The notes beneath the pieces are model-generated. The model did no database searches and had not been told where the DNA came from. It saw only the letters and a list, made by a program, of their open reading frames with translations. A DNA stretch of 64,000 nt, taken from the sequence record NC_024124.2. One strand, 5' to 3'. A program made the translations under genes and the position numbers. The first letter of the stretch is position 1. Every line of letters starts with the position of its first letter. Source of the stretch: Escherichia phage vB_EcoM_JS09. This document shows positions 3,677 to 60,024 of the stretch, in pieces.

Positions 3677-4040
3677 GCCCTGGGCATACGAATACAAACG
3701 TAAATTAATCCCAAATGAAGTACTATTTGGCCCTATTTTAGCTTTAGCATTTTTAATCTTTATGATTATAGGAGCTATTTTAGATTCCAATAAAGTTATA
3801 TCGTCTGATGCAGTGTTTTTACTTATTATACCCGGGTCGTTTATTGTACCATTTTTATTAATGCCTATTAACTGGGTGGGATATTGGTACCAAGGACGTC
3901 ATCATAGAGCCCGATTAAGAGAATGGAAAGTTCAGTGCGCAAAAGCCCAAGCTCAGTATGATGAAGCTGTTAAAAAGTATGAATACGAAGAAGCTATGGA
4001 ATTCGTTAAGGAAATAAGATGCAAAAGCCTCAACTCTTAA
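3645..4040 (+). CDS. small membrane protein, C-terminal tail EFVKEIRCKS
   Basis: ORF track frame (3615 is a TTG); ATG at 3645; two hydrophobic segments. Confidence 0.5.
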   Translation: MSKPTLYMPIKPWAYEYKRKLIPNEVLFGPILALAFLIFMIIGAILDSNKVISSDAVFLLIIPGSFIVPFLLMPINWVGYWYQGRHHRARLREWKVQCAKAQAQYDEAVKKYEYEEAMEFVKEIRCKSLNS

Positions 4041-4378
4041 CCGTATGGCCTTCTCTTGGTGAGAACATTCTAATTTTTATTATGAGTATTGGCATGGGAT
4101 TTGCCTTTGGATTAGTTGGATTTCTTATTGACGGCGTTGTGTTAGGATTTATAGGGAACACTGGTGGATTCACAGACCAATGGCAGGACTTACGGTATAC
4201 CCAAGCCTTTGCATCCATCGCATCATTTTGTACTGTAGTCTATTTTTACTACGATTTTATAAACCATAACAAGAAAAATAAAAAGGTTTACGCTTCTCAA
4301 ATGATTAGTTATAATGAACTCCTAGCTAGACGTGAAAATGAAACAATAGAAAACTTTATTAAGGAATGTAGAAAATGA
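4019..4378 (+). CDS. small membrane protein, C-terminal ENFIKECRK
   Basis: ORF track; AAGGAAA upstream; Gly-rich hydrophobic segment. Confidence 0.6.
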   Translation: MQKPQLLTVWPSLGENILIFIMSIGMGFAFGLVGFLIDGVVLGFIGNTGGFTDQWQDLRYTQAFASIASFCTVVYFYYDFINHNKKNKKVYASQMISYNELLARRENETIENFIKECRK

Positions 4379-4680
4379 GTAAGATTATTGAAATTAAAGT
4401 ACCAGAGTTTAATGATGCCAAATCCGCTTCAGACGCAATTTATAAACTTCTAAATCAAGCTGAACGTATCGAAGAAGAAGCAACAAAGATCGCAGACCAA
4501 TATGCAGTATCGTTTTCTGTAGGTGATTATGGTAGCGGTCGTACTTATTATCCTAAGGGTGAAATCGTATCCCAGTGGATGAAAGATGAAATTGAAAATA
4601 ATGGTGGCGATGTTAAGCGTGAAGGTAATGGTTACGTTATTACTGAAGGTGCTTGGGTTTCGTCTTCTGCGTTGTGCTAA
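4375..4680 (+). CDS. hypothetical protein, tandem family member 1 (ends GAWVSSSALC)
   Basis: ORF track; ATGA overlap with upstream gene. Confidence 0.6.
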   Translation: MSKIIEIKVPEFNDAKSASDAIYKLLNQAERIEEEATKIADQYAVSFSVGDYGSGRTYYPKGEIVSQWMKDEIENNGGDVKREGNGYVITEGAWVSSSALC

Positions 4681-4689
4681 GGAATTATT

Positions 4690-4962
4690 ATGTCTAAAGA
4701 ACAAACCGAACTGGCTGAAGCCGTAGCAAAAATCTATGCAGCTATTGAGGCTGCCAAAGAAATTGCTGATAAACAAAACACAACATTCAACTTGTATCCA
4801 GCTTATGGTATGGGTGGAACCTATCATTCACCCGGACATCTTAAAGCCGATCTTGAACGTTGTACAAAAAACGGCTATGCCGAATGGGCCGACGTTTACC
4901 AATACGACTATAACCTGAGTCTCGAAACTGGTGGTTGGGTTGCATCTTCTCACACTTGCTAA
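4690..4962 (+). CDS. hypothetical protein, tandem family member 2 (ends GGWVASSHTC)
   Basis: ORF track; CTAAGGAA upstream, the same context as member 3. Confidence 0.6.
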   Translation: MSKEQTELAEAVAKIYAAIEAAKEIADKQNTTFNLYPAYGMGGTYHSPGHLKADLERCTKNGYAEWADVYQYDYNLSLETGGWVASSHTC

Positions 4963-4971
4963 GGAAACCGT

Positions 4972-5169
4972 ATGTCTCGTGAATTAGATTGTGCTGTACG
5001 TACCGCAGTAGCTGCTCTAGAAAACCTGTTCCAAATTGCAACAGAAGAACGCGAAGAAGTTACATTATGGATTGAAGATAACGCAGGTCTGAATCTCCAG
5101 GACGCGATCTCATTATCTAATAATAGCATTACTGTTCAAGGCTGGGTATCATCTAGTTATTCTTGCTAA
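4972..5169 (+). CDS. hypothetical protein, tandem family member 3 (ends QGWVSSSYSC)
   Basis: ORF track; CTAAGGAA upstream. Confidence 0.6.
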   Translation: MSRELDCAVRTAVAALENLFQIATEEREEVTLWIEDNAGLNLQDAISLSNNSITVQGWVSSSYSC

Positions 5170-5173
5170 AACA

Positions 5174-5203
5174 GTTTACAACAAGATAGGGCTATGTTAT
5201 AGT
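5174..5203 (+). promoter_or_regulatory. T4-type early promoter inside an inverted repeat
   Basis: GTTTAC (5174-5179), TGnTATAGT around 5195-5203; arms GATAGGGCTAT / ATAGTAGTCCTATC flank the -10. Confidence 0.6.
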
Positions 5204-5231
5204 AGTCCTATCAAATTAAATGGAGTCTGCA

Positions 5232-5471
5232 ATGATTTATTACGAAAGTATTGGAACTAAAGTGGTTGCTAAAACCATTACTCGTGAAAAGTTTGCAAAG
5301 ATATTCGATATGCGTTATAAAAAATCTGAACACAAAGGCATCCGATTCGAAGATGCGCACTGTACAATTTGCCCTTATAATGAAGACATAAACGGTACAA
5401 TCGTTCCATTGGTAGAGGCTTCACATGATGACCTCTGGGATGAATATAATATCGCATGTCGTGAAATTTAA
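5232..5471 (+). CDS. hypothetical protein (79 aa)
   Basis: ORF track trimmed to ATG at 5232 after GGAG. Confidence 0.5.
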   Translation: MIYYESIGTKVVAKTITREKFAKIFDMRYKKSEHKGIRFEDAHCTICPYNEDINGTIVPLVEASHDDLWDEYNIACREI

Positions 5472-5495
5472 GTTAATTAATCCGAGGAAAATATT

Positions 5496-6452
5496 ATGAT
5501 GTTAGTTATTGGTTCTCGTGCACTTCACTATCATGGTCTTATTGATTCTAGCGCTATCAAAAATAGCGATTGGGACTTTATTGCGGACCAAGGTTCTTGG
5601 AATGCATTCAAAAATCAAATGATGGGTGTATATGTTCACCAAGACAACCCTGATGTCCAAGTTTTCAAATGCTTCCATAATGGACGCGAAACTCATTTTG
5701 AAGCATATATTGTTCCGGCAATCACTAATGTTCGTGAATTAGTCGGTGAACTCACTCCTGAAGATTTCACGTCTTCTTATGACCTTTTAAAATACGCCAA
5801 GAAAAATTTGACTAAAGATCGTTTGACCGGGTTTTACTGGGCAACTCCTGAGATATGTCTTGCAATTAAAATGTCTCATCGTTTCAAGAAAAATAATCCA
5901 TTCTTTTTAAAGACTATGAACCATATTCAGTATCTTCGTGGTAAAGGTGTTACACTGAACGATGAACTTACTGAAATTATGCTGAAACGCCAGAAAGAAA
6001 CTTTGAACTATGCTCACCCAGTTCTTGACACTTCTAAAAGTGCGTTCTTTAAAGATGACATCTATACATATGACCATGATACTATTCACGAAGCCATTGC
6101 ACTAACAGACCGTCCGGCTTATACGTTTTACATGAAAGACGGTTCTGAAGTCATGACCTCACGCGAGAAGTTCGAATCGTTACCAGAAATGGTCAAATTG
6201 GCCGGCGTATATGAAGAATCATGTGTACTAGCGTTAGAACGTTCTCAGATTCCTAATAACTTTGAAATTAACCCTGAAGCCAGTTTCATGATGGCATTAG
6301 AAAAAGTCTGCACAATCATCACCTCCGGTTGGTTCCGTGAGTTCGCTTGGGAAAATTATAGCAAAGTAGTAAGTATGTACCAAAGCTTAGGACATGACGA
6401 TTACGTCAAGCGTTTCAAACAAAACTTTCATATGGTAAAACCTTTCAAATAA
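5496..6452 (+). CDS. hypothetical protein with possible Pol-beta-type nucleotidyltransferase motif (318 aa)
   Basis: ORF track; GAGGAAAA upstream; N-terminal GSRALHYHGLIDSSAIKNSDWDF fits hG[GS]-x(9-16)-DhD only loosely. Confidence 0.55.
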   Translation: MMLVIGSRALHYHGLIDSSAIKNSDWDFIADQGSWNAFKNQMMGVYVHQDNPDVQVFKCFHNGRETHFEAYIVPAITNVRELVGELTPEDFTSSYDLLKYAKKNLTKDRLTGFYWATPEICLAIKMSHRFKKNNPFFLKTMNHIQYLRGKGVTLNDELTEIMLKRQKETLNYAHPVLDTSKSAFFKDDIYTYDHDTIHEAIALTDRPAYTFYMKDGSEVMTSREKFESLPEMVKLAGVYEESCVLALERSQIPNNFEINPEASFMMALEKVCTIITSGWFREFAWENYSKVVSMYQSLGHDDYVKRFKQNFHMVKPFK

Positions 6453-6532
6453 TTTCACAAAACAGTTTACAAGGTCTGTAGTTGTTGATACTATAGACCT
6501 ATCAAAACAAATGAGTGAATGGAGATATAAAA

Positions 6533-6733
6533 ATGACTACTTTGAATAAACGTTTCGGTAAAGCTAAACCTGGTTGTGCAGCAAAACGTCGTTATGTTTT
6601 CGCTCAGTTAGAAGATGTAGAGTATCAGATTAATCAAGTTCACATTACTGGTATCGAGCCTATGTGTGGCCTTGAAGCTCTTCGTGAAGTTCGTGATGGG
6701 TATCGTCGTGACATCGAAGAAATGTCAAAATAA
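6533..6733 (+). CDS. hypothetical protein (66 aa)
   Basis: ORF track trimmed to ATG at 6533 after GGAG. Confidence 0.5.
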   Translation: MTTLNKRFGKAKPGCAAKRRYVFAQLEDVEYQINQVHITGIEPMCGLEALREVRDGYRRDIEEMSK

Positions 6734-27753: not shown

Positions 27754-28227
27754 ATGTTATTATCTGGCAAATTATACAAAGAAGAAAAACAAAAATTTTA
27801 TGATGCACAGAATGGTAAGTGTCCTATTTGCCACCGTGAATTAGACCCTGATGTTCAAGGTAACCATCTTGACCACGACCATGAATTAAACGGGCCAAAA
27901 GCCGGTAGAGTTCGTGGATTACTCTGTAATCTGTGCAACGCAGCAGAAGGCCAAATGAAGCATAAGTTCAACCGTTCCGGTCTTAAAGGACGTGATGTCG
28001 ACTACCTCGAATGGCTTGAAGCTCTTCTTGCTTATTTGAAACAAGATTATTCTGATAATAATATCCATCCTAATTTTGTTCCAGACAAAACTAAAGAGTT
28101 CTCAAGACTAGGTAAAGAGGAAATGATGGCTGAGATGCTTCAAAGAGGATTTGAATATAATGAATCTGATACCAAAACACAATTAATAGCTTCATTCAAA
28201 AAGCAGCTTAGAAAGAGTTTAAAATGA
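27754..28227 (+). CDS. 49: endonuclease VII, Holliday junction resolvase
   Basis: MLLSGKLYKEEKQKFYDAQNGKCPIC...HLDHDHELNGPKAGRVRGLLCNLCN near-identical to T4 gp49 as recalled. Confidence 0.95.
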   Translation: MLLSGKLYKEEKQKFYDAQNGKCPICHRELDPDVQGNHLDHDHELNGPKAGRVRGLLCNLCNAAEGQMKHKFNRSGLKGRDVDYLEWLEALLAYLKQDYSDNNIHPNFVPDKTKEFSRLGKEEMMAEMLQRGFEYNESDTKTQLIASFKKQLRKSLK

Positions 28228-30041
28228 AAATTGAAAAAGAAATTGAAGGATTAATTCATAAAACTAATAAAGATCTTTTGAACGAGAATGCTAATAAAGA
28301 TTCTCGTGTTTTTCCAACTCAACGGGACCTTATGGCTGGTATTGTGTCTAAGCACATTGCCAAAAATATGGTCCCGTCTTTTATTATGAAAGCACATGAA
28401 AGCGGAATTATCCATTTCCATGATATTGATTATTCCCCTGCTCTTCCATTTACTAATTGCTGTTTAGTAGATTTAAAAGGAATGCTTGAAAACGGGTTTA
28501 AGCTAGGTAATGCTCAAATTGAAACGCCTAAATCGATTGGTGTTGCTACTGCAATTATGGCACAAATTACCGCACAGGTTGCTTCACATCAGTACGGCGG
28601 AACGACTTTTGCTAATGTAGATAAAGTACTTTCTCCTTATGTTAAACGCACCTATGCAAAACATATTGAGGATGCAGAAAAATGGCAAATCGCTGATGCG
28701 TTGAATTATGCCCAATCTAAAACAGAAAAAGACGTATACGATGCATTTCAAGCTTATGAGTATGAAGTAAATACTCTTTTTAGCTCAAACGGTCAAACGC
28801 CTTTTGTAACAATTACATTTGGTACTGGAACTGACTGGACTGAACGAATTATTCAGAAAGCAATTCTTAAAAACCGCATTAAAGGCCTTGGTCGTGATGG
28901 AATAACTCCTATTTTCCCTAAACTTGTTATGTTCATTGAAGAGGGTGTCAATCTTTATAAAGACGACCCGAACTATGATATTAAGCAGCTTGCTCTAGAG
29001 TGTGCAAGCAAAAGAATGTATCCTGATATTATTTCAGTTAAGAACAATAAAGCTATCACTGGTTCATCTATTCCTGTTTCTCCAATGGGTTGTCGTAGTT
29101 TCTTGAGTGTATGGAAAGATTCGACTGGAAATGAAATTCTTGATGGACGTAATAATCTTGGTGTTGTAACACTGAATCTTCCTCGTATTGCGTTAGATTC
29201 TTATATTGGAACACAATTCAATGAACAGAAATTTGTTGAGCTATTTAATGAACGAATGGATCTGTGTTTTGAAGCCTTGATGTGTAGAATTAGTTCTTTA
29301 AAGGGTGTTAAAGCAACTGTTGCTCCTATTCTTTACCAAGAAGGTGCATTCGGGGTTCGTCTTAAACCTGATGACGATATAATTGAGTTATTTAAAAACG
29401 GTAGAAGTTCAGTGTCCTTAGGATACATTGGTATTCACGAATTGAATATTCTTGTCGGTCGTGATATTGGACAAGAAATTTTAACTAAAATGAATGCTCA
29501 TCTTAAGCAGTGGACTGAAAGAACCGGTTTTGCTTTTAGCTTGTATTCTACTCCTGCTGAAAACCTGTGCTATCGCTTCTGTAAACTTGATACCGAGAAA
29601 TATGGAAGTGTAAAAGATGTTACTGATAAAGGCTGGTACACTAATAGTTTCCATGTTTCAGTAGAAGAAAATATCACTCCGTTTGAAAAGATTTCTCGCG
29701 AAGCCCCATATCATTTCATTGCGACTGGCGGACATATTTCTTATGTTGAACTTCCTGATATGAAAAATAACCTAAAAGGTCTTGAGGCTGTATGGGATTA
29801 TGCTGCACAACATTTAGATTATTTTGGTGTTAATATGCCAGTAGATAAATGTTTTACATGTGGAAGTACTCATGAAATGACTCCTACTGAAACCGGATTT
29901 GTTTGTTCTATTTGTGGAGAAACTGACCCTAAAAAGATGAACACCATAAGAAGAACATGCGGTTATCTTGGAAATCCTAACGAACGCGGATTTAATCTCG
30001 GCAAAAATAAAGAAATCATGCATAGGGTTAAACACCAATGA
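28224..30041 (+). CDS. nrdD: anaerobic (class III) ribonucleotide reductase
   Basis: 605 aa with C-terminal glycyl-radical motif RRTCGYLGNP and Cys-rich zinc site; single uninterrupted ORF. Confidence 0.95.
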   Translation: MKIEKEIEGLIHKTNKDLLNENANKDSRVFPTQRDLMAGIVSKHIAKNMVPSFIMKAHESGIIHFHDIDYSPALPFTNCCLVDLKGMLENGFKLGNAQIETPKSIGVATAIMAQITAQVASHQYGGTTFANVDKVLSPYVKRTYAKHIEDAEKWQIADALNYAQSKTEKDVYDAFQAYEYEVNTLFSSNGQTPFVTITFGTGTDWTERIIQKAILKNRIKGLGRDGITPIFPKLVMFIEEGVNLYKDDPNYDIKQLALECASKRMYPDIISVKNNKAITGSSIPVSPMGCRSFLSVWKDSTGNEILDGRNNLGVVTLNLPRIALDSYIGTQFNEQKFVELFNERMDLCFEALMCRISSLKGVKATVAPILYQEGAFGVRLKPDDDIIELFKNGRSSVSLGYIGIHELNILVGRDIGQEILTKMNAHLKQWTERTGFAFSLYSTPAENLCYRFCKLDTEKYGSVKDVTDKGWYTNSFHVSVEENITPFEKISREAPYHFIATGGHISYVELPDMKNNLKGLEAVWDYAAQHLDYFGVNMPVDKCFTCGSTHEMTPTETGFVCSICGETDPKKMNTIRRTCGYLGNPNERGFNLGKNKEIMHRVKHQ

Positions 30042-30508
30042 ATTATGATAGATTTTATCCTTGCGATTTTGTGAATGGCCCTGGTTGCAGGGTCGTTCTT
30101 TTCGTTACAGGTTGTTTGCATAAATGCGAAGGGTGTTATAATAAATCAACATGGAACGCTAGAAATGGTATTCCATTCACGGGTGAAACACTAGAGCAAT
30201 TAATTGAATGTTTGAATAATGATTATATAGAAGGATTAACTATAACTGGAGGAGACCCTCTCTATCCCGATAACAGAGATGTTGTTCATTGCATTGCTCA
30301 AACAGTAAAAAATCTTTATCCCAATAAAAGCATTTGGTTGTGGACAGGATATAAGTTTGAAGATATTAAACAACTAGAAATGCTTAAATATGTTGATGTT
30401 ATTATTGATGGGAAGTATGAGAAAAATCTTCCGACTAAAAAGATGTGGCGAGGATCAGATAATCAGCGACTTTGGTCAAATACCGATGGGGTGTGGAAAC
30501 ATGATTAA
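30038..30508 (+). CDS. nrdG: anaerobic RNR activating enzyme (radical SAM)
   Basis: GCLHKCEGCYN radical-SAM Cys motif; ATGA overlap with nrdD. Confidence 0.9.
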   Translation: MNYDRFYPCDFVNGPGCRVVLFVTGCLHKCEGCYNKSTWNARNGIPFTGETLEQLIECLNNDYIEGLTITGGDPLYPDNRDVVHCIAQTVKNLYPNKSIWLWTGYKFEDIKQLEMLKYVDVIIDGKYEKNLPTKKMWRGSDNQRLWSNTDGVWKHD

Positions 30509-44878: not shown

Positions 44879-45514
44879 ATGAAAACTACTCCTATTACTA
44901 TCGCTATTGACGCAATCATAAAACAAGCTTCTTCTTTGGCCGCTATGGCCAAAGTAATTAGTCAAAACCCTGCTCGTTATAATGCTATTCTAGAAACTCT
45001 TCGACGCCCTGGACTTAGTAATTATGAAAGTCGTGTAATTATTACAGGTGTTGGTAAGAACGCTAATATCGCAACTAAAGCTTCTGAGACATTTGCTTCA
45101 CTCGGTATCCCGAGTATGTACTTGAACACCGGGCATTATTCTCACGGTGATGCAGGATTCATTGCGCCTAATGATGTGTTGATTCATATTAGTCGTTCTG
45201 GTAAAACTGAAGAAATGATAGGCGTGGCTAAGCATCTTAAAACGATTCGTCCGAACGTCAAACAGATTCTGTTGCATTGTAACCCAGACATTCCACAAGA
45301 AAATGAAGCCCTTTTTGATTACTCTTTCTGTACAGGCATCGCAGTAGAGGTTGATGAGAATTCTCTGGCTCCGACCATGTCCACTACATTGTTGTTAGCG
45401 CTTATCGATACTTTTGCTATCAACCTTTCGTCTGAGCGTGGATTTACCTCTAATGACTTCCTTAAGTTCCACCCTGGCGGTGCACTAGGTGCCATGTTAC
45501 GAGGCGAACAATGA
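44879..45514 (+). CDS. SIS-domain sugar-phosphate isomerase, arabinose-5-phosphate isomerase-like
   Basis: RVIITGVGKNANIATKASETFASLGIP ... HGDAG resembles the KdsD/GutQ SIS core; no CBS domains. Confidence 0.75.
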   Translation: MKTTPITIAIDAIIKQASSLAAMAKVISQNPARYNAILETLRRPGLSNYESRVIITGVGKNANIATKASETFASLGIPSMYLNTGHYSHGDAGFIAPNDVLIHISRSGKTEEMIGVAKHLKTIRPNVKQILLHCNPDIPQENEALFDYSFCTGIAVEVDENSLAPTMSTTLLLALIDTFAINLSSERGFTSNDFLKFHPGGALGAMLRGEQ

Positions 45515-47821: not shown

Positions 47822-48982
47822 ATGAATACCTTTAAAATCGGAACGAATTTTGATTTAGCTCTTCTTGATAAAATCGTAGAGCTCAATAAAACTTATCCTA
47901 ATAGCTTGATAAACGAAGTATACGGCTCTACAAGAGAAATGGCTTTTGTAGCAGCCAGACCTGATTTTAGGCTTCCTGACGTTGACAAAAAGATGTTAGA
48001 AGATTACGTTAAACGTTGTAACGAATTAGGTATTTGCTTTAACTATACACTCAACACGATAAATCCTGGTTCAAAAAGAGAACTAGTTGAGTGGAAGAAG
48101 AAAGCTATTCAGGATTATGTTCAGTATCTTTGGTCAATAGGCGTATGGCGTATTACTATCGCTAACCCTGTTGTTATGGAAATTGTTCGTGAAGTCAATA
48201 AAGACATTGAGATTGAAGTTTCAACAATTCTACATGTCGATGCTGTAACTCAAATCAAATACTTGCATGACCAGTATAATATCAAAAAGGTCTGCTGTGG
48301 AATTCATAAGAACCGTTCAGTTTCTTTCCTGAAGCGTGCAGCAGAGTTTTGCAATAAGAACAATATAATATTTGAAGTTCTTGTAAATGAGTTCTGTTCT
48401 AATGCTGGTAAAGGGTATACAACACATTGTAGCTATCGTGACTCTTGCTATATTTTCCATAGTACTGATGTTACAGCTGATGATGCTAAATCCTTAAACG
48501 GATATCCTATGCAGCACTGTATTAAAGCTCGTGATACAGACCCATTTAACTGGTTGAGAACTCGTTTTGTTCGCCCCCAAGATTTGAAACTTTATAATGA
48601 TATTGGTATCACTCAATTTAAAGTTTCGGGACGTACAGGTAGCACCGACTACATTTTGAAAGTTCTTGAAGCTTATGCTTCTGAAAAGTTTGAAGGTAAT
48701 TTGTTGGAATTGTGGAAGCCTTTAGAGACCATTTTCACTCTTGAAAATGAGACAGAGTTTTCACATACAGTAAATATTGAAACCTCTTTGTTAGATGGCT
48801 TTTTAGAAAAAAGGTGGTTCAGACATCCAGATTTCGATTGTGCTAATGAAATCTGCGGGACGACGTGTACATATTGTGAAAGATATTATAAACGTCAATT
48901 ATCTAAAAACGGGTTAGCAGAAAACTCTATATCTATTATTGATATAACTAACTCTGATGACGCTTTGAGGTACCCGGAATGA
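47822..48982 (+). CDS. Cys-rich U32-family-like protein, possible Fe-S enzyme (386 aa)
   Basis: Cys clusters NEFCSNAGKGYTTHCSYRDSCY and CANEICGTTCTYCERYY; overall resemblance to peptidase-U32 (RlhA/UbiU-type) proteins is from recollection only. Confidence 0.55.
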   Translation: MNTFKIGTNFDLALLDKIVELNKTYPNSLINEVYGSTREMAFVAARPDFRLPDVDKKMLEDYVKRCNELGICFNYTLNTINPGSKRELVEWKKKAIQDYVQYLWSIGVWRITIANPVVMEIVREVNKDIEIEVSTILHVDAVTQIKYLHDQYNIKKVCCGIHKNRSVSFLKRAAEFCNKNNIIFEVLVNEFCSNAGKGYTTHCSYRDSCYIFHSTDVTADDAKSLNGYPMQHCIKARDTDPFNWLRTRFVRPQDLKLYNDIGITQFKVSGRTGSTDYILKVLEAYASEKFEGNLLELWKPLETIFTLENETEFSHTVNIETSLLDGFLEKRWFRHPDFDCANEICGTTCTYCERYYKRQLSKNGLAENSISIIDITNSDDALRYPE

Positions 48983-49140
48983 TTTCTAGAAAAACTTTTA
49001 ACCACCAACTTAACGAAGAGATTTTGACTATGAAACTGAACACTAATGAACAAATTCTTAAAAAGGCCCTGATGGGCCTGTTTGAAACTAAAGCGGCTAA
49101 AGTGATTAAAGAAACCTGTTCAATTGGAATACTACGCTGA
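48979..49140 (+). CDS. hypothetical small protein (53 aa)
   Basis: Not in ORF track; ATGA overlap. Confidence 0.35.
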   Translation: MISRKTFNHQLNEEILTMKLNTNEQILKKALMGLFETKAAKVIKETCSIGILR

Positions 49141-49261
49141 TGCATTTCTTCATAGTGTTCTTGGAAGTATCGATGCTGAAGCTTTACGTTATATCAACAT
49201 TGTCAAGAAATTCAAATAAGCTTTACGAATTGAGTATATAATAAATTGTATTGAGGTAAAC

Positions 49262-49978
49262 ATGGGAAAACATAACACAATGAAATATATCAAAGCCGCA
49301 GATTTTCAAACCGCATTTAAAGCAGTCAATCGTGAAATTTTAGAAAACCCGGAATTCGTAACTGATTCTCGTATTGGACGTTGTAATGAAATTGGGTCTA
49401 TGACAGTAGTTGTTGACACTCCATCATCATTCAAAATGACCGACCCACGTATTAACCGCATCTCTTATGAATATGCCGAAGACTTCTGGAAGTTTATGAT
49501 TTCTGGTGGTACCAACGCAGAAGAAGCGTTTAAGGCATATCCTAATGTCGCTAAATTTATTTCTAAACCAAAATCAGATGTTTTGCCGGCGAACTTCAAC
49601 ACTTTCTATGGTCCTCGCATTGCGGCCCAATTACCAGCTCTTCTAAAAGAACTTAAAGAGAAGCCTAACTCCCGAAGAGTTGTGTTCCAAATTCTAGAAA
49701 GTTCTGATCAGGCTTTGCTTGATTCAGACGAAACGCTTGAATATCCATGTACTGACTCAGTGACTTATTATATTCGTGATGGTAAGCTTTATACCCACTG
49801 TCATATGCGTTCTCAGAACTGTGCTGTTGTTATGCAGTTGGATTTTTATCTCCAAGGAAAATTACTTCATTATATCGCTAACGAATGTGGTGTAGAAGTT
49901 GGTGATTATACTCATACCATGGTAAGTGCCCATGTGTTTGAACGTGATTTTGATTATGTTAAAGGATTCCTTGACTAA
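49262..49978 (+). CDS. 42: dCMP hydroxymethylase-like (thymidylate synthase fold)
   Basis: EYPCTDSVTYYIRDGKLYTHCHMRSQN...D aligns with the T4 gp42 core around the catalytic Cys and Asp; 238 aa. Confidence 0.65.
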   Translation: MGKHNTMKYIKAADFQTAFKAVNREILENPEFVTDSRIGRCNEIGSMTVVVDTPSSFKMTDPRINRISYEYAEDFWKFMISGGTNAEEAFKAYPNVAKFISKPKSDVLPANFNTFYGPRIAAQLPALLKELKEKPNSRRVVFQILESSDQALLDSDETLEYPCTDSVTYYIRDGKLYTHCHMRSQNCAVVMQLDFYLQGKLLHYIANECGVEVGDYTHTMVSAHVFERDFDYVKGFLD

Positions 49979-50877
49979 TGGCTATTTTCCGCGTACCTAT
50001 TTTGAGTATGCGGTCTTATGAAACTGGACAGTATGCTATCCTTAAGGATGGCAACTTCCAACTTCATTTGCACCGTGCTAATCCAGGTGATGTGATTACA
50101 TATCCACGTAATGCATCTGATATTAAAGAATGCGAACGTCTTTTTCCGGAATTTAAGTTTGTTCCATTATGGTATAAAGATAACGCGTATAACACTCGTA
50201 AATATTTCTGGTCTGAAAATGAATTTGTGGTTGATTCATTAATTGCTTATTATGATTGTGATTTTCTAATCACAGATATCACTGGATATGATGGCGCTTT
50301 TGACGTAGAATTCAATTTCAATATCACTGCAGACCCTAATAAACCACGTTTTTATATTGATGAATTCTTAAAAACCGACATGTTGTCTGTTAATCGTTCA
50401 CTTCAAACTACTGTGTTGAATGAACGTCAAAAAGAAGTGCTGGTTAACGCAGGTGCAGATGGTAATAAGATTATCGTAACACAGAAAGTTATACGTCCTT
50501 CCGTCATGCAGCGTCTTGTAGGTGATTTGGCTCCTATTCATCTAGATGGTATTTTTCATCCATTTCGAATTAGTGACCCATGCTATCGTTTTGAACAAGT
50601 GGTTGAATGCGCAATTCAATTAGGTCAACCGCTTTATATAACTGATCCAAATAATAGTTTCGACAGAAATAAGTATCCTGAAGAAGCGCTGATTCGAATT
50701 TTTAATCCAACTAAAACTGAGTACTATCAAATTCTTAAAGGACGTCCGAAGATTCAATATTTCGAAAATCCTGAAGAAGTATTCCATCCAGGTCTTGGTG
50801 AGTTCATCTACTTTAATGCTTTAATTTCTTCGCCGTATAATATACCTAAATACGAAGATGTCGTAATCGAGGAATAA
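49978..50877 (+). CDS. hypothetical protein (299 aa), candidate DNA sugar transferase by position
   Basis: Occupies the slot between gene 42 and uvsX where T4 has beta-glucosyltransferase; no motif recognised. Confidence 0.55.
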   Translation: MAIFRVPILSMRSYETGQYAILKDGNFQLHLHRANPGDVITYPRNASDIKECERLFPEFKFVPLWYKDNAYNTRKYFWSENEFVVDSLIAYYDCDFLITDITGYDGAFDVEFNFNITADPNKPRFYIDEFLKTDMLSVNRSLQTTVLNERQKEVLVNAGADGNKIIVTQKVIRPSVMQRLVGDLAPIHLDGIFHPFRISDPCYRFEQVVECAIQLGQPLYITDPNNSFDRNKYPEEALIRIFNPTKTEYYQILKGRPKIQYFENPEEVFHPGLGEFIYFNALISSPYNIPKYEDVVIEE

Positions 50878-50878
50878 A

Positions 50879-51427
50879 ATGGCTAAAATTATTTTAGTAG
50901 ATGGCCCGGATAATGCCGGTAAAACAACTTTCATTAATGACATAATGGAAATTAGTGAAAGATATGTAAAGATTGATTTCCCTAAACGAACAGTTGATGG
51001 ACGTTTCGATGTTAAGTCTCGAAATGAAGTTGGCTGTTTCGAAACGATGTTGAATTATTTAGACCCTACTAAGATTTATCTGTTAGACCGTGGATATATT
51101 AGTAACTGGGTTTATGGACGTATTCGACAAGATGTGGACTCGGTTCTTGACGTTTATGAACAGGATTATGTTCGTCTTTGCCAAAACCATGATGTGTTCA
51201 CAATTATTTTAACACGTAACGAAATGACTGAAAGTTTTGAAGACGACCTTATTACTTTGTCTTCATTCGGTTTTAATACAGTCATTTCATATTTTGAAGA
51301 GTTTGCAATTCATAACAAAATCCAAACGTATCAATTACTTAATCATGACGGTGCTAACAAAGTTATAGGATTTAATGCAAGCGAACGTAATTATTTGATT
51401 ACAGAAATTATCAAATGGGCTCGTTAA
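50879..51427 (+). CDS. P-loop nucleotide/nucleoside kinase-like (182 aa)
   Basis: Walker A VDGPDNAGKTTF typical of thymidylate/dNMP-kinase-like enzymes. Confidence 0.6.
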   Translation: MAKIILVDGPDNAGKTTFINDIMEISERYVKIDFPKRTVDGRFDVKSRNEVGCFETMLNYLDPTKIYLLDRGYISNWVYGRIRQDVDSVLDVYEQDYVRLCQNHDVFTIILTRNEMTESFEDDLITLSSFGFNTVISYFEEFAIHNKIQTYQLLNHDGANKVIGFNASERNYLITEIIKWAR

Positions 51428-51527
51428 GAGCCTGTTTAAAGTTTTTAAATGCTGTATAACCCTTAGTATATAATCGTCTTATCTTTTAAACATGAGTAAA
51501 ATATAATGATGCCTATGGAAAAATACA

Positions 51528-59414: not shown

Positions 59415-59502
59415 AATATCTCCTTAGTTACCTATTATTTATTACGCTTTATAAAATTAATGTTAGAATTAACTCTCTTATACTGAATTGAAAGGAAAAA
59501 TA

Positions 59503-60024
59503 ATGGCACACTTTAACGAATGTTCACAACTTATTTCTGGTGTTGATAAAGCAGAAGAAGCTTATTTTAATGCTCTGATTCACGAAGATAAAGACCCACT
59601 TCAGGTAATGCTTGATATGCAGAAATCTTTACAGGTTCGTTTGGCAAATGACAAGCCTGAACATAACAAACATCCTGATGAATTGGCCACTGCAGGCGAC
59701 GTTGTTGATTGGCTGCGTAATCAGAAAGATTATATTGATGATGAATTCCGTGAACTGCTGACTTCACTTGGTGGTATGAGCAATGGTGAAAAAGCCGCCA
59801 GCAGTGTATGGAAGCCGTGGAAAGCACAACATGCTGAATATCGTAATCGTCGTATCGATGAACTGTCTCCTGAAGACCAGCTTGAAATTAAATTTGAGAT
59901 GATTGATATTCTGCACTTCGTTCTGAACATGTTCCAAGGTCTGGGTCTTTCTGCTGAAGAAATCTTTAAACTTTACTACTTGAAAAACCAACACAACTTT
60001 GAACGCCAGGATAATGGTTACTGA
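59503..60024 (+). CDS. 56: dCTP pyrophosphatase gp56 (MazG-like)
   Basis: MAHFNECSQLISGVDKAEEAYFNALIHEDKDPLQVMLDMQ... near-identical to T4 gp56 as recalled; start trimmed to 59503. Confidence 0.95.
   Translation: MAHFNECSQLISGVDKAEEAYFNALIHEDKDPLQVMLDMQKSLQVRLANDKPEHNKHPDELATAGDVVDWLRNQKDYIDDEFRELLTSLGGMSNGEKAASSVWKPWKAQHAEYRNRRIDELSPEDQLEIKFEMIDILHFVLNMFQGLGLSAEEIFKLYYLKNQHNFERQDNGY

Follow-up and report, generated by a model that had tools for sequence, protein, structure and literature searches.

The gene cluster and its U32-family protein

The window analysed here is a stretch of 64,000 nucleotides from Escherichia phage vB_EcoM_JS09 (NC_024124.2), an RB69-like Mosigvirus that megablast aligns at ~98% identity over 6.7 kb with many phages, Escherichia phage ST0 among them. 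Within a gene cluster for DNA modification it encodes a 386-aa, cysteine-rich protein of the U32 family, and we argue below that this protein is probably an enzyme that hydroxylates deoxycytidylate (dCMP) in the absence of oxygen, alongside the O2-dependent enzyme encoded a few hundred nucleotides downstream. The cluster is organised as follows.

44879..45514, plus strand: SIS-domain arabinose-5-phosphate isomerase, RB69 gp55 homolog (Pfam SIS; PMC13326640)
45696..47381, plus strand: bifunctional nucleoside triphosphate (NTP)-transferase/kinase, AfhE-like, RB69 gp52:53, intact here (Pfam NTP_transferase, weak kinase-family matches; PMC13326640)
47366..47767, plus strand: HAD-like sugar phosphatase, AfhF-like, RB69 gp51 homolog (PMC13326640; no Pfam match)
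47822..48982, plus strand: U32-family protein, 386 aa, RB69p050 homolog; proposed prephenate-dependent, O2-independent (deoxy)cytidylate C5-hydroxylase
48979..49219, plus strand: slot gene (phrog_8601), frameshifted here, of which a 53-aa open reading frame (ORF) remains at 48979-49140; it sits where sister genera have chorismate mutase
49262..49978, plus strand: ThyA-superfamily 5-hydroxy-dCMP synthase, dependent on flavin mononucleotide (FMN) and O2, RB69 gp48 homolog (Pfam Thymidylat_synt; D169N/N177D)
49978..50877, plus strand: DNA arabinosyltransferase 1, RB69 gp46:47 homolog, intact here (PMC13326640 Table 1)
50879..51427, plus strand: thymidylate-kinase-like nucleotide kinase, RB69p045 homolog (PMC13326640 Table 1)

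The U32 reading frame opens with ATG and closes with a stop codon after 386 codons, and the reverse strand is riddled with stop codons there. A first-pass annotation, made from the letters of the window, had placed the gene between sugar-activation genes and the ThyA homolog, which agrees with these coordinates, and had noted that the protein lacks a T4 counterpart, which we accept as right.

Family assignment of the 386-aa protein

The protein is 99.5% identical to RB69p050, whose locus is annotated 'peptidase' in RB69, and 99.7% identical to its HY126 counterpart. PHROG 5757 ('peptidase') matches it over its full length with 886 bits. The Pfam model Peptidase_U32 (PF01136, gathering score 22.4) covers residues 94-286 with 42.2 bits (E = 7e-11), and all except three of the listed homologs also have PF01136. 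An AlphaFold2 model computed from 82 homologs is confident (predicted local distance difference test, pLDDT, 92.6; predicted template-modelling score, pTM, 0.91) and folds as a strand/helix barrel followed by a small C-terminal module. When this model was compared with the PDB by Foldseek, the top match was 5d88, the U32 protein MK0906 (E = 5e-7, target TM-score 0.69), and the remaining matches were generic triosephosphate isomerase (TIM) barrels. MK0906, the catalytic domain of a U32 'peptidase' of Methanopyrus kandleri, is the only solved U32 structure; it is 11% identical to the phage protein and accounts for the barrel only, not for the C-terminal cysteine module. Profile match and predicted fold together indicate a genuine member of the Peptidase_U32 superfamily with a TIM-barrel fold, and the family that the first-pass annotation had proposed is borne out.

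The position of the protein inside the family is less conventional. A single-sequence search of the PDB sequences returned nothing, no NCBIfam equivalog was found, and the NCBIfam UbiU model NF047963 gave 18.5 bits against a cut-off of 440, so that the protein is not a UbiU equivalog. When a profile of the clade was aligned with the E. coli U32 proteins (hhalign), RlhA was the best match (E = 1.1e-5, probability 82%, 205 columns including the cysteine region); only its N-terminal U32 domain aligns, and the full-length RlhA architecture of ~650 aa is not matched by a protein of 386 aa. TrhP followed with E = 0.003, a probability of 11% and the N-terminal 128 columns only, which does not make the phage protein a TrhP equivalog, and UbiU with E = 0.007. 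The ranking of RlhA above TrhP and UbiU is indicative at most, because a profile was compared with single sequences.

The gene is evidently maintained. Relative to phiE142, another Mosigvirus, it shows 16 synonymous and 0 nonsynonymous differences; between genera, nonsynonymous divergence (dN) is 0.09-0.18, synonymous divergence (dS) is saturated, and dN/dS is ~0.05 where it can be estimated. These substitution patterns point to a functional gene under strong purifying selection.

Most database records annotate such proteins as 'peptidase', 'collagenase-like protease' or 'putative protease', and a real peptidase or collagenase would be the literal reading of the family name. These names are inherited from the family label, however, and wherever a substrate has been defined for a characterised member, that member is a hydroxylation factor (PMC6747719, PMC10990095). 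Moreover, the Fe-S-type cysteines, the linkage to chorismate mutase and the deoxynucleotide context described below would be senseless for a protease, and we consider this explanation extremely improbable.

Two conserved sets of cysteines

The protein carries two groups of cysteines, one inside the U32 domain and one close to the C-terminus.

48395..48520, plus strand: cysteine cluster 1, C192-X10-C203-X5-C209-X23-C233, inside the U32 domain; putative [4Fe-4S] ligands
48839..48877, plus strand: cysteine cluster 2, C340-X4-C345-X3-C349-X2-C352, near the C-terminus; putative second metal or Fe-S site, by its cysteine pattern

Both strings quoted in the first-pass annotation, NEFCSNAGKGYTTHCSYRDSCY (C192, C203 and C209) and CANEICGTTCTYCERYY (C340, C345, C349 and C352), are present exactly, in the 386-aa protein as described. 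All these residues, together with C158 and C233, are invariant in 82 members of the clade. Among 105 members that are more distant, with identities as low as 23%, C203 and C233 never vary, and each of C192, C340, C345, C349 and C352 is at least 90% conserved. Such conservation goes far beyond what chance would give. When E. coli UbiU, UbiV, RlhA and TrhP are aligned with the protein, C203 and C209 are invariant, and C192 and C233 fall at or near UbiU C169 and C232. The [4Fe-4S] ligands of UbiU have been determined by experiment as C169, C176, C193 and C232 (PMC6747719); the four cysteines of cluster 1 fall at or near these positions. The C-terminal CX4CX3CX2C set is specific to the clade, and the spacing of the cysteines as a whole (CX10CX5CX23C plus this set) departs from the canonical U32 motif.

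From this pattern the phage protein probably binds Fe-S. Of the 'Cys-rich putative Fe-S enzyme' of the first-pass annotation, the abundance of cysteines and the U32 family therefore stand as facts, and the cluster as a probability. By analogy, the two sets in a single polypeptide could mimic the two clusters of the UbiU-UbiV heterodimer.

The C345-X3-C349-X2-C352 segment could also recall a radical-SAM motif. This reading was rejected: no Radical_SAM Pfam match was obtained at E values up to 0.1, and the motif lies C-terminal to the barrel rather than in its first loop. In addition, a fourth conserved cysteine, C340, precedes the CX3CX2C, and there would therefore be no open iron site for radical SAM.

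Linkage to chorismate mutase

The most informative neighbour of the U32 gene is found in related phages. An AroQ chorismate mutase gene adjoins it in 18 of the 21 U32-bearing Straboviridae loci (18 of the 22 examined); Bp7, among the 22, has neither gene. Stop and start codons of the pair often overlap. Entb_45 (Kanagawavirus) and LC53 (Winklervirus) both have U32 first, then the mutase gene and then the ThyA homolog, with stop codons that overlap start codons, and Pfam CM_2 recognises the two mutases with 40.9 and 44.6 bits against a cut-off of 27. The same arrangement occurs in Morganella and Yersinia phages. In Shewanella phage Thanatos-1 (locus L010, 5874-7264) the cluster is rearranged, and U32 and chorismate mutase are still an overlapping pair, now downstream of the kinase and no longer upstream of the ThyA homolog. 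A published Thanatos study modelled TH1_065 and assigned it no role.

A tblastn search of the phage database with the LC53 mutase matched 56 records, none of them a Mosigvirus. Every genus matched also has the U32 gene, and both genes were present in each locus inspected. The AroQ hallmarks R8, D15, R25, K36, S71 and Q75 are invariant in 15 phage sequences.

Chorismate mutase, whose product is prephenate, makes sense beside a U32 protein, as prephenate is the oxygen donor for UbiU/V hydroxylation and is required by TrhP and RlhA (PMC10990095). The linkage suggests that the phage U32 protein, too, would use prephenate. We found no paper in the literature searched that connects phage U32 proteins with chorismate mutase.

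This linkage would suit any prephenate-dependent reaction, including an O2-independent hydroxylation of a polymer, either the cytosines of phage DNA or an RNA (5-hydroxyuridine-34, ho5U34, of tRNA or 5-hydroxycytidine-2501, ho5C2501, of 23S rRNA) whose modification would tune translation during anaerobic infection. The closest characterised relatives indeed act on RNA polymers, and RlhA is the best profile match. RlhA (653 aa) and TrhP (453 aa), however, continue in long C-terminal extensions that the phage protein, at 386 aa, does not have, and for RNA the host already encodes TrhP, TrhO and RlhA. In close and distant phages alike the gene is embedded in, and translationally coupled to, genes for deoxynucleotide metabolism and DNA glycosylation (ThyA homolog, dCMP deaminase, MazG, P-loop kinase, glycosyltransferase, DNA polymerase III alpha), and full replacement of cytosine in virion DNA normally occurs at the mononucleotide level (PMC13326640). 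A polymer substrate thus appears unlikely to us.

In the window itself, the place of the mutase is taken by the slot gene. Its frameshift consists of one extra A in an A-run at ~49108-49114 relative to phiE142, where the gene is intact at 79 aa; the PHROG match of the remaining ORF spans profile positions 1-52 of 79, and the HY126 version has 40 aa. The gene may be decaying in Mosigviruses, or the frameshift may be a sequencing error. We considered whether it could be the remnant of a frameshifted chorismate mutase and rejected the idea, since even the frameshift-corrected sequence scored ~0 bits against a hidden Markov model (HMM) of the phage mutases and an hhalign probability of 0.2%. The slot ORF had no match in Pfam, including AroQ/CM_2.

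Distribution among cultured phages

The U32 gene was found in 220 phage records, all at 80% identity or more. Ten genera are named for these records (seven minor ones go unnamed), all of them Enterobacterales: Escherichia, Klebsiella, Shigella, Serratia, Proteus, Yersinia, Enterobacter, Providencia, Edwardsiella and 'Enterobacteria'. Pectobacterium and Shewanella (Thanatos-2) phages are also among the U32 records shown. Phage records with the ThyA-type hydroxylase number 372; 57 of them are Acinetobacter and 20 are Rhizobium phages, and neither genus is among the U32 genera listed. One Acinetobacter phage locus comprises an isomerase, a kinase/NTP-transferase, a HAD protein, a ThyA homolog and glycosyltransferases, with neither U32 nor chorismate mutase. 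Phages of strict aerobes (Acinetobacter, Rhizobium) have the O2-dependent enzyme only; enterobacterial and Shewanella phages mostly have both. All 21 U32-bearing Straboviridae loci contain the ThyA-type enzyme, and all 21 a DNA glycosyltransferase homolog. The thymidylate-kinase-like kinase is present in 22/22 Straboviridae loci and, among the more distant viral loci presented below, in 25/32.

The first-pass annotation had taken the ThyA homolog for a pyrimidine hydroxymethylase; its D169N and N177D substitutions, seen in the alignment with E. coli ThyA, place it instead in the 5-hydroxy-dCMP synthase type (PMC13326640). RB69 DNA contains mono- and di-arabinosylated 5-hydroxycytosine, not arabinosyl-hydroxymethylcytosine, and RB69 gp48 is an FMN-binding 5-hydroxy-dCMP synthase whose oxygen comes from O2, as found by 18O2 labelling (PMC13326640). 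Arabinosyl-5-hydroxycytosine is therefore already explained without the U32 protein, and the further base or sugar modification step formerly suggested for it is unlikely, because the pathway operates or is encoded in Acinetobacter phages and Dhakaviruses too, and these have no U32 gene.

The same phages bear on a role in the sugar pathway, in which the U32 protein would be a reductase, an epimerase or a similar enzyme making or tailoring the nucleoside diphosphate (NDP)-arabinose donor. The gene directly follows those of the isomerase, the kinase/NTP-transferase and the phosphatase; the protein is predicted to be a TIM barrel, and sugar-enzyme TIM barrels are among its weaker fold matches; and the literature on RB69 labels it 'Sugar or heterocycle reductase' (PMC13326640 Table 1) or 'epimerase' (PMC13390438). 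Yet HY126 AfhE and AfhF take arabinose-5-phosphate to uridine diphosphate (UDP)-arabinose, so that no further enzyme is needed (PMC13326640), and both the Acinetobacter phages, with their tri-arabinosylated 5-hydroxycytosine, and the Dhakaviruses have the sugar genes and no U32. Five distant loci (L030, L034, L039, L043 and L056) present the reverse situation, with U32 beside MazG, kinase and glycosyltransferase genes and no sugar-activation genes. No U32 protein is known to act on sugars, and a sugar enzyme would leave the Fe-S-type cysteines and the chorismate mutase linkage unexplained. We find this role improbable.

Distant relatives and the search for the O2-dependent enzyme

Hundreds of metagenomic relatives of the 386-aa protein were found at 40-58% identity, and the clade comprises 489 representatives of 50%-identity clusters at E <= 1e-30. 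We examined 45 distant loci, 32 on viral contigs and 13 in species genomes, which were viewed to ±8 kb and complemented by a motif-based scan of whole contigs. The 13 species genomes belong nearly all to obligately anaerobic, mostly gut, lineages (Erysipelotrichales, Oscillospiraceae, Gastranaerophilaceae, Romboutsia, Tannerella, Phocaeicola, Clostridia from deer colon, Angelakisella). As there are only 13 matches in ~185,000 species, this fits a mostly phage-borne gene. Phocaeicola faecalis FXJYN30E22 is the only genome of a cultured isolate among these matches; the element on its scaffold 17 (102 kb, L070) could be a prophage or a co-assembled phage, and would then make a system from a strict anaerobe accessible to experiment.

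The company of the gene in the 45 loci is again that of DNA modification, with DNA glycosyltransferase homologs in 27, NTP-transferase/kinase fusions in 19 and SIS isomerases in 11. Further neighbours are HAD phosphatases, thymidylate-kinase-like kinases, MazG, dCMP deaminase, DNA polymerase III alpha and primase; in locus L002 the dCMP deaminase gene overlaps the start of U32. In 16 of the 45 loci a chorismate mutase domain is encoded no more than 8 kb away from the U32 gene, and right beside it in those checked. In several of them the mutase is fused to 3-deoxy-D-arabino-heptulosonate 7-phosphate (DAHP) synthase (Pfam 88.7 and 71.8 bits). In L038 (6411-7433), and also in L040, L041, L042 and L063, such a fusion, with a C-terminal mutase, stands directly upstream of HAD and U32 and resembles an entry into the shikimate pathway that the phage carries itself.

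No ThyA homolog of the 5hodCMP-synthase (5-hydroxy-dCMP synthase) type was found in the 45 distant loci. The single ThyA-family match (L029) is an ordinary thymidylate synthase, because it keeps D169 and N177, with 34% identity to E. coli ThyA. When the whole viral collection was scanned for the 5-hydroxy-dCMP synthase subfamily it yielded 66 loci, with matches down to 23% identity. In this whole-contig scan, a ThyA-type gene was present on 15/15 Straboviridae U32 contigs and on 0/32 distant U32 contigs. In the distant phages the cassette is built in the T-even style (pyrophosphatase, modifying enzyme, kinase, polymerase, glycosyltransferase), and the pair of U32 and chorismate mutase stands where the base-modifying enzyme would be.

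In some distant loci the U32 gene is accompanied by genes of nucleotide salvage (NT5C, dNK, nucleoside deoxyribosyltransferase, dCMP deaminase) and the glycosyltransferase is missing, and U32 enzymes are known to hydroxylate ubiquinone precursors as well (PMC6747719). The protein might then be a prephenate-dependent hydroxylase, or another Fe-S redox enzyme, acting on some other small molecule (dUMP or another nucleotide, a quinone, a cofactor), and belong to the cluster through shared regulation only. Against this stand the tight and recurrent association with DNA glycosyltransferases (27/45 distant loci and 21/21 Straboviridae loci), the distribution complementary to that of the ThyA-type cytosine hydroxylase, and the fact that 5-hydroxycytosine is the only hydroxylated product known in RB69-type phages (PMC13326640). 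Such a role seems to us improbable.

Two side observations were made in these loci. In L003 (12160-14360) and L061, a second, very divergent U32-like paralog stands beside a radical-SAM/SPASM protein, and may represent a two-subunit arrangement like that of UbiU/UbiV; in L003, nucleotide-salvage genes for NT5C, dNK, nucleoside deoxyribosyltransferase and a nicotinamide mononucleotide (NMN) transporter are found close by as well. In a group of viral contigs of 190-290 kb (L044, L047, L049, L050, L052, L053 and L055, at ~3900-6700 on the minus strand), pairs of RimK-like ATP-grasp genes lie just upstream of the U32-chorismate mutase-glycosyltransferase block, which hints at a further, amino-acid-type decoration of the modification.

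Anaerobic deoxynucleotide synthesis

The window also encodes an oxygen-sensitive class III ribonucleotide reductase (RNR) and its radical-SAM activase, from genes whose stop and start codons overlap.

28224-30041 and 30038-30508, plus strand: NrdD (605 aa) and NrdG (156 aa), respectively (Pfam NRDD 570 bits and Gly_radical; Fer4_12 and Radical_SAM)

The phage therefore invests in anaerobic synthesis of deoxynucleoside triphosphates. It has been reported that the RNR class follows the oxygen lifestyle of the host, phages of aerobes having class I or II and most phages of facultative anaerobes classes I and III (PMC3653736). In the table of that study RB69, SP18 and T4 have classes I and III; the Dhakaviruses JS98, JS10 and IME08 and the Acinetobacter phages 133, Acj9, Acj61 and Ac42 have class I only. 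In agreement, nrdC and nrdH follow each other in Bp7 with nothing in between. The U32 gene and the anaerobic RNR are both present in Mosigvirus and both absent from Dhakavirus and the Acinetobacter phages.

The correspondence is incomplete. Where T4, RB69 and the window have nrdD-nrdG, LC53 keeps only a 42-aa ORF (L077, 6203-6331) annotated as a fragment of the anaerobic NTP reductase large subunit, and Entb_45 a 39-aa ORF (L078, 6751-6870); in these two phages, which have U32 and chorismate mutase, the anaerobic RNR seems to have been lost. The mismatch may reflect the fact that a class III RNR is available from the host, while 5-hydroxy-dCMP is a compound that no host makes. As evidence for an anaerobic role, the co-distribution with RNR is weak and mixed.

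Other features of the window

The wider surroundings of the cluster are a T4-type replication module, with gp45, gp44/62, regA and gp43 upstream and uvsX and gp41 downstream. Two further features concern the cluster or its substrate.

51413..51437, plus strand: terminator-like hairpin, a 10-bp stem followed by a T-rich tail, at the end of the co-directional cluster just before uvsX (by consensus match only)
59488..60024, plus strand: probable gp56-type dCTPase, 178 aa (dUTPase_2 29.4 bits at the C-terminus; analogy with T4 gp56 and RB69p028, PMC13326640 Table 1)

By this analogy the dCTPase candidate would probably supply dCMP and keep dCTP out of phage DNA. A promoter scan showed no excess, with 21 sites against 26 expected by chance. 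A 219-aa protein at 56813-57472 matches Pfam AdfA (anti-DarT factor A) with 398.7 bits; this anti-defence gene is unrelated to the U32 finding.

A parallel, O2-independent route to 5-hydroxy-dCMP

Taken together, these data lead us to propose, with a probability of roughly 60%, that the U32 protein is a prephenate-dependent, O2-independent dCMP C5-hydroxylase that works in parallel with the ThyA-type enzyme and is not an extra step. The oxygen-independent pyrimidine hydroxylase of the first-pass annotation is thus favoured, by the chorismate mutase linkage, by RlhA as the best profile match and by a distribution that tracks the oxygen lifestyle of the host; what is unlikely is its role as an additional step. 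Family membership, the conserved cysteine sets, gene linkage, distribution and purifying selection are observations; from sequence, gene context and distribution we infer Fe-S binding, the use of prephenate, the hydroxylase activity, the substrate (dCMP rather than the cytosines of DNA) and the function as an anaerobic backup. Independence from O2 is suggested by the distribution complementary to that of the ThyA-type hydroxylase, by the anaerobic lineages of the species genomes and by NrdD/NrdG in the window. None of the rival explanations accounts as well for the chorismate mutase linkage and the complementary distribution together.

In the proposed scheme, dCMP would be made by the phage dCTPase. 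In air, the FMN/O2-dependent ThyA homolog (49262-49978) would turn it into 5-hydroxy-dCMP; in anoxic cells that enzyme could not work, and the U32 enzyme would yield the same product. The 5-hydroxy-dCMP would then be phosphorylated, polymerised into DNA and arabinosylated by the products of the flanking genes. An O2-independent route would be needed because the neighbouring hydroxylase uses FMN and O2, because all cytosine is replaced and because the phage carries NrdD/NrdG. The oxygen atom would come from prephenate, itself decarboxylated to phenylpyruvate; the same donor has been proposed for RlhA and TrhP, and for UbiU/UbiV it has been established by genetics and 18O labelling (PMC10990095). 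An acceptor would receive the two electrons of the pyrimidine by way of cluster 1 (C192/C203/C209/C233) and probably also of cluster 2 (C340/C345/C349/C352). Sister genera would secure prephenate through the chorismate mutase gene coupled to U32. Mosigviruses, which have no recognisable chorismate mutase gene, having lost it or never had it, would rely on the prephenate of host PheA and TyrA. There is a precedent for phages co-opting prephenate-dependent RNA-modification chemistry for DNA modification (PMC12783734).

Several observations weigh against this proposal. The Dhakaviruses (e.g. Bp7) infect E. coli with the O2-dependent enzyme only, and with neither U32 nor chorismate mutase; an enteric phage can therefore do without the U32 gene. 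Nor are the distribution counts independent in phylogenetic terms; they reflect few gain or loss events. The lineage of the window itself, Mosigvirus (~150 records), has no chorismate mutase recognisable by tblastn, HMM or hhalign, in about one third of the distant loci the 8 kb on either side of U32 hold no glycosylation genes, and LC53 and Entb_45, with U32 and chorismate mutase, have no nrdD/nrdG at the syntenic site. The CX10CX5CX23C spacing differs from the canonical U32 CX6CX15-16CX3/4C (UbiU having a CX38C variant). Characterised U32 relatives that hydroxylate pyrimidines act on RNA polymers, not on free nucleotides. In addition, in vitro reconstitution of a U32 hydroxylase had yet to be achieved at the time of PMC10990095, and the RB69 study tabulates RB69p050 as a 'Sugar or heterocycle reductase', with matches to the 5d88 fold and no discussion (PMC13326640). 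Essentiality data for LC53 were looked for in a phage Tn-seq preprint, and there are none there.

Comparison with known systems

The closest chemical parallel is RlhA (YdcP), the E. coli 23S rRNA 5-hydroxycytidine-2501 synthase, which shares the U32 domain and conserved cysteines aligning with C203 and C209, needs prephenate and iron (PMC10990095), and performs the C5 hydroxylation of cytosine that we propose for the phage protein. It differs in having 653 aa, two U32-related parts and long C-terminal domains, and in acting on one rRNA residue; its identity to the phage protein is ~19%, and the latter, at 386 aa, has another cysteine spacing and its own C-terminal CX4CX3CX2C module. In the TrhP (YegQ)/TrhO system, as proposed here, one pyrimidine C5 hydroxylation (tRNA ho5U34) is served in one organism by an O2-dependent enzyme and by a prephenate-dependent U32 enzyme; TrhP acts on a tRNA uridine, however, and the O2-dependent partner in the phage is a ThyA-superfamily flavoenzyme, not the rhodanese-like TrhO. 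UbiU and UbiV each bind a [4Fe-4S] cluster through four cysteines in or near the U32 domain, use prephenate as donor and are the anaerobic counterpart of the flavin monooxygenases UbiI/H/F. They form a heterodimer with one cluster per subunit, need UbiT and act on a lipid, whereas the phage enzyme would be a single polypeptide with two cysteine sets.

Among phage enzymes, RB69 gp48, DLP3 gp80 and the HY126 hydroxylase share with the U32 protein the gene cluster and, as proposed, substrate and product. Their fold and cofactors are unrelated, they need O2, and they alone have experimental support (PMC13326640). The class I (NrdAB) and class III (NrdDG) reductases, both present in RB69, likewise are an aerobic and an anaerobic enzyme for one nucleotide step, although reaction and protein families are different and the distribution of NrdDG does not fully match that of U32. 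The most economical reading is that the U32 protein is the O2-independent isozyme of the 5-hydroxy-dCMP synthase encoded downstream, mirroring TrhO/TrhP, UbiIHF/UbiUV and NrdAB/NrdDG; this differs from the further modification step suggested in the first-pass annotation. In its Discussion the RB69 study mentions RlhA and TrhP as examples of pyrimidine hydroxylation by unrelated pathways (PMC13326640), and a June 2026 paper that cites all the arabinosylation studies describes the cluster as 'putative sugar-modifying genes' of a pathway not fully characterised (PMC13390438).

Significance

The only demonstrated route to 5-hydroxycytosine DNA in RB69-type phages needs O2, while their hosts are facultative anaerobes and the gut is largely anoxic; an O2-independent hydroxylase would explain how these phages replicate there. 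More tentatively, and at somewhat less than even odds, the clade would be the first U32 hydroxylase acting on a free deoxynucleotide (dCMP to 5-hydroxy-dCMP, with prephenate as donor) and, in a large unexplored group of phages of strict anaerobes, the sole route to DNA with O-glycosylated 5-hydroxypyrimidines. If this is true, hypermodification of the glycosyl-5-hydroxycytosine type would be widespread in anoxic and gut viromes, and prephenate-dependent U32 chemistry would extend from RNA and quinones to DNA precursors. An auxiliary function is suggested as well: with chorismate mutase, and even DAHP synthase, phages would bring along the means to make prephenate. For U32 hydroxylases, an enzyme that is small and soluble and takes a nucleotide as substrate could become the first tractable in vitro system, and candidates for phage therapy from the RB69-like group may act differently with and without oxygen. 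Finally, the clade is a large uncharacterised gene family in anaerobic viromes, which probably marks hypermodified DNA.

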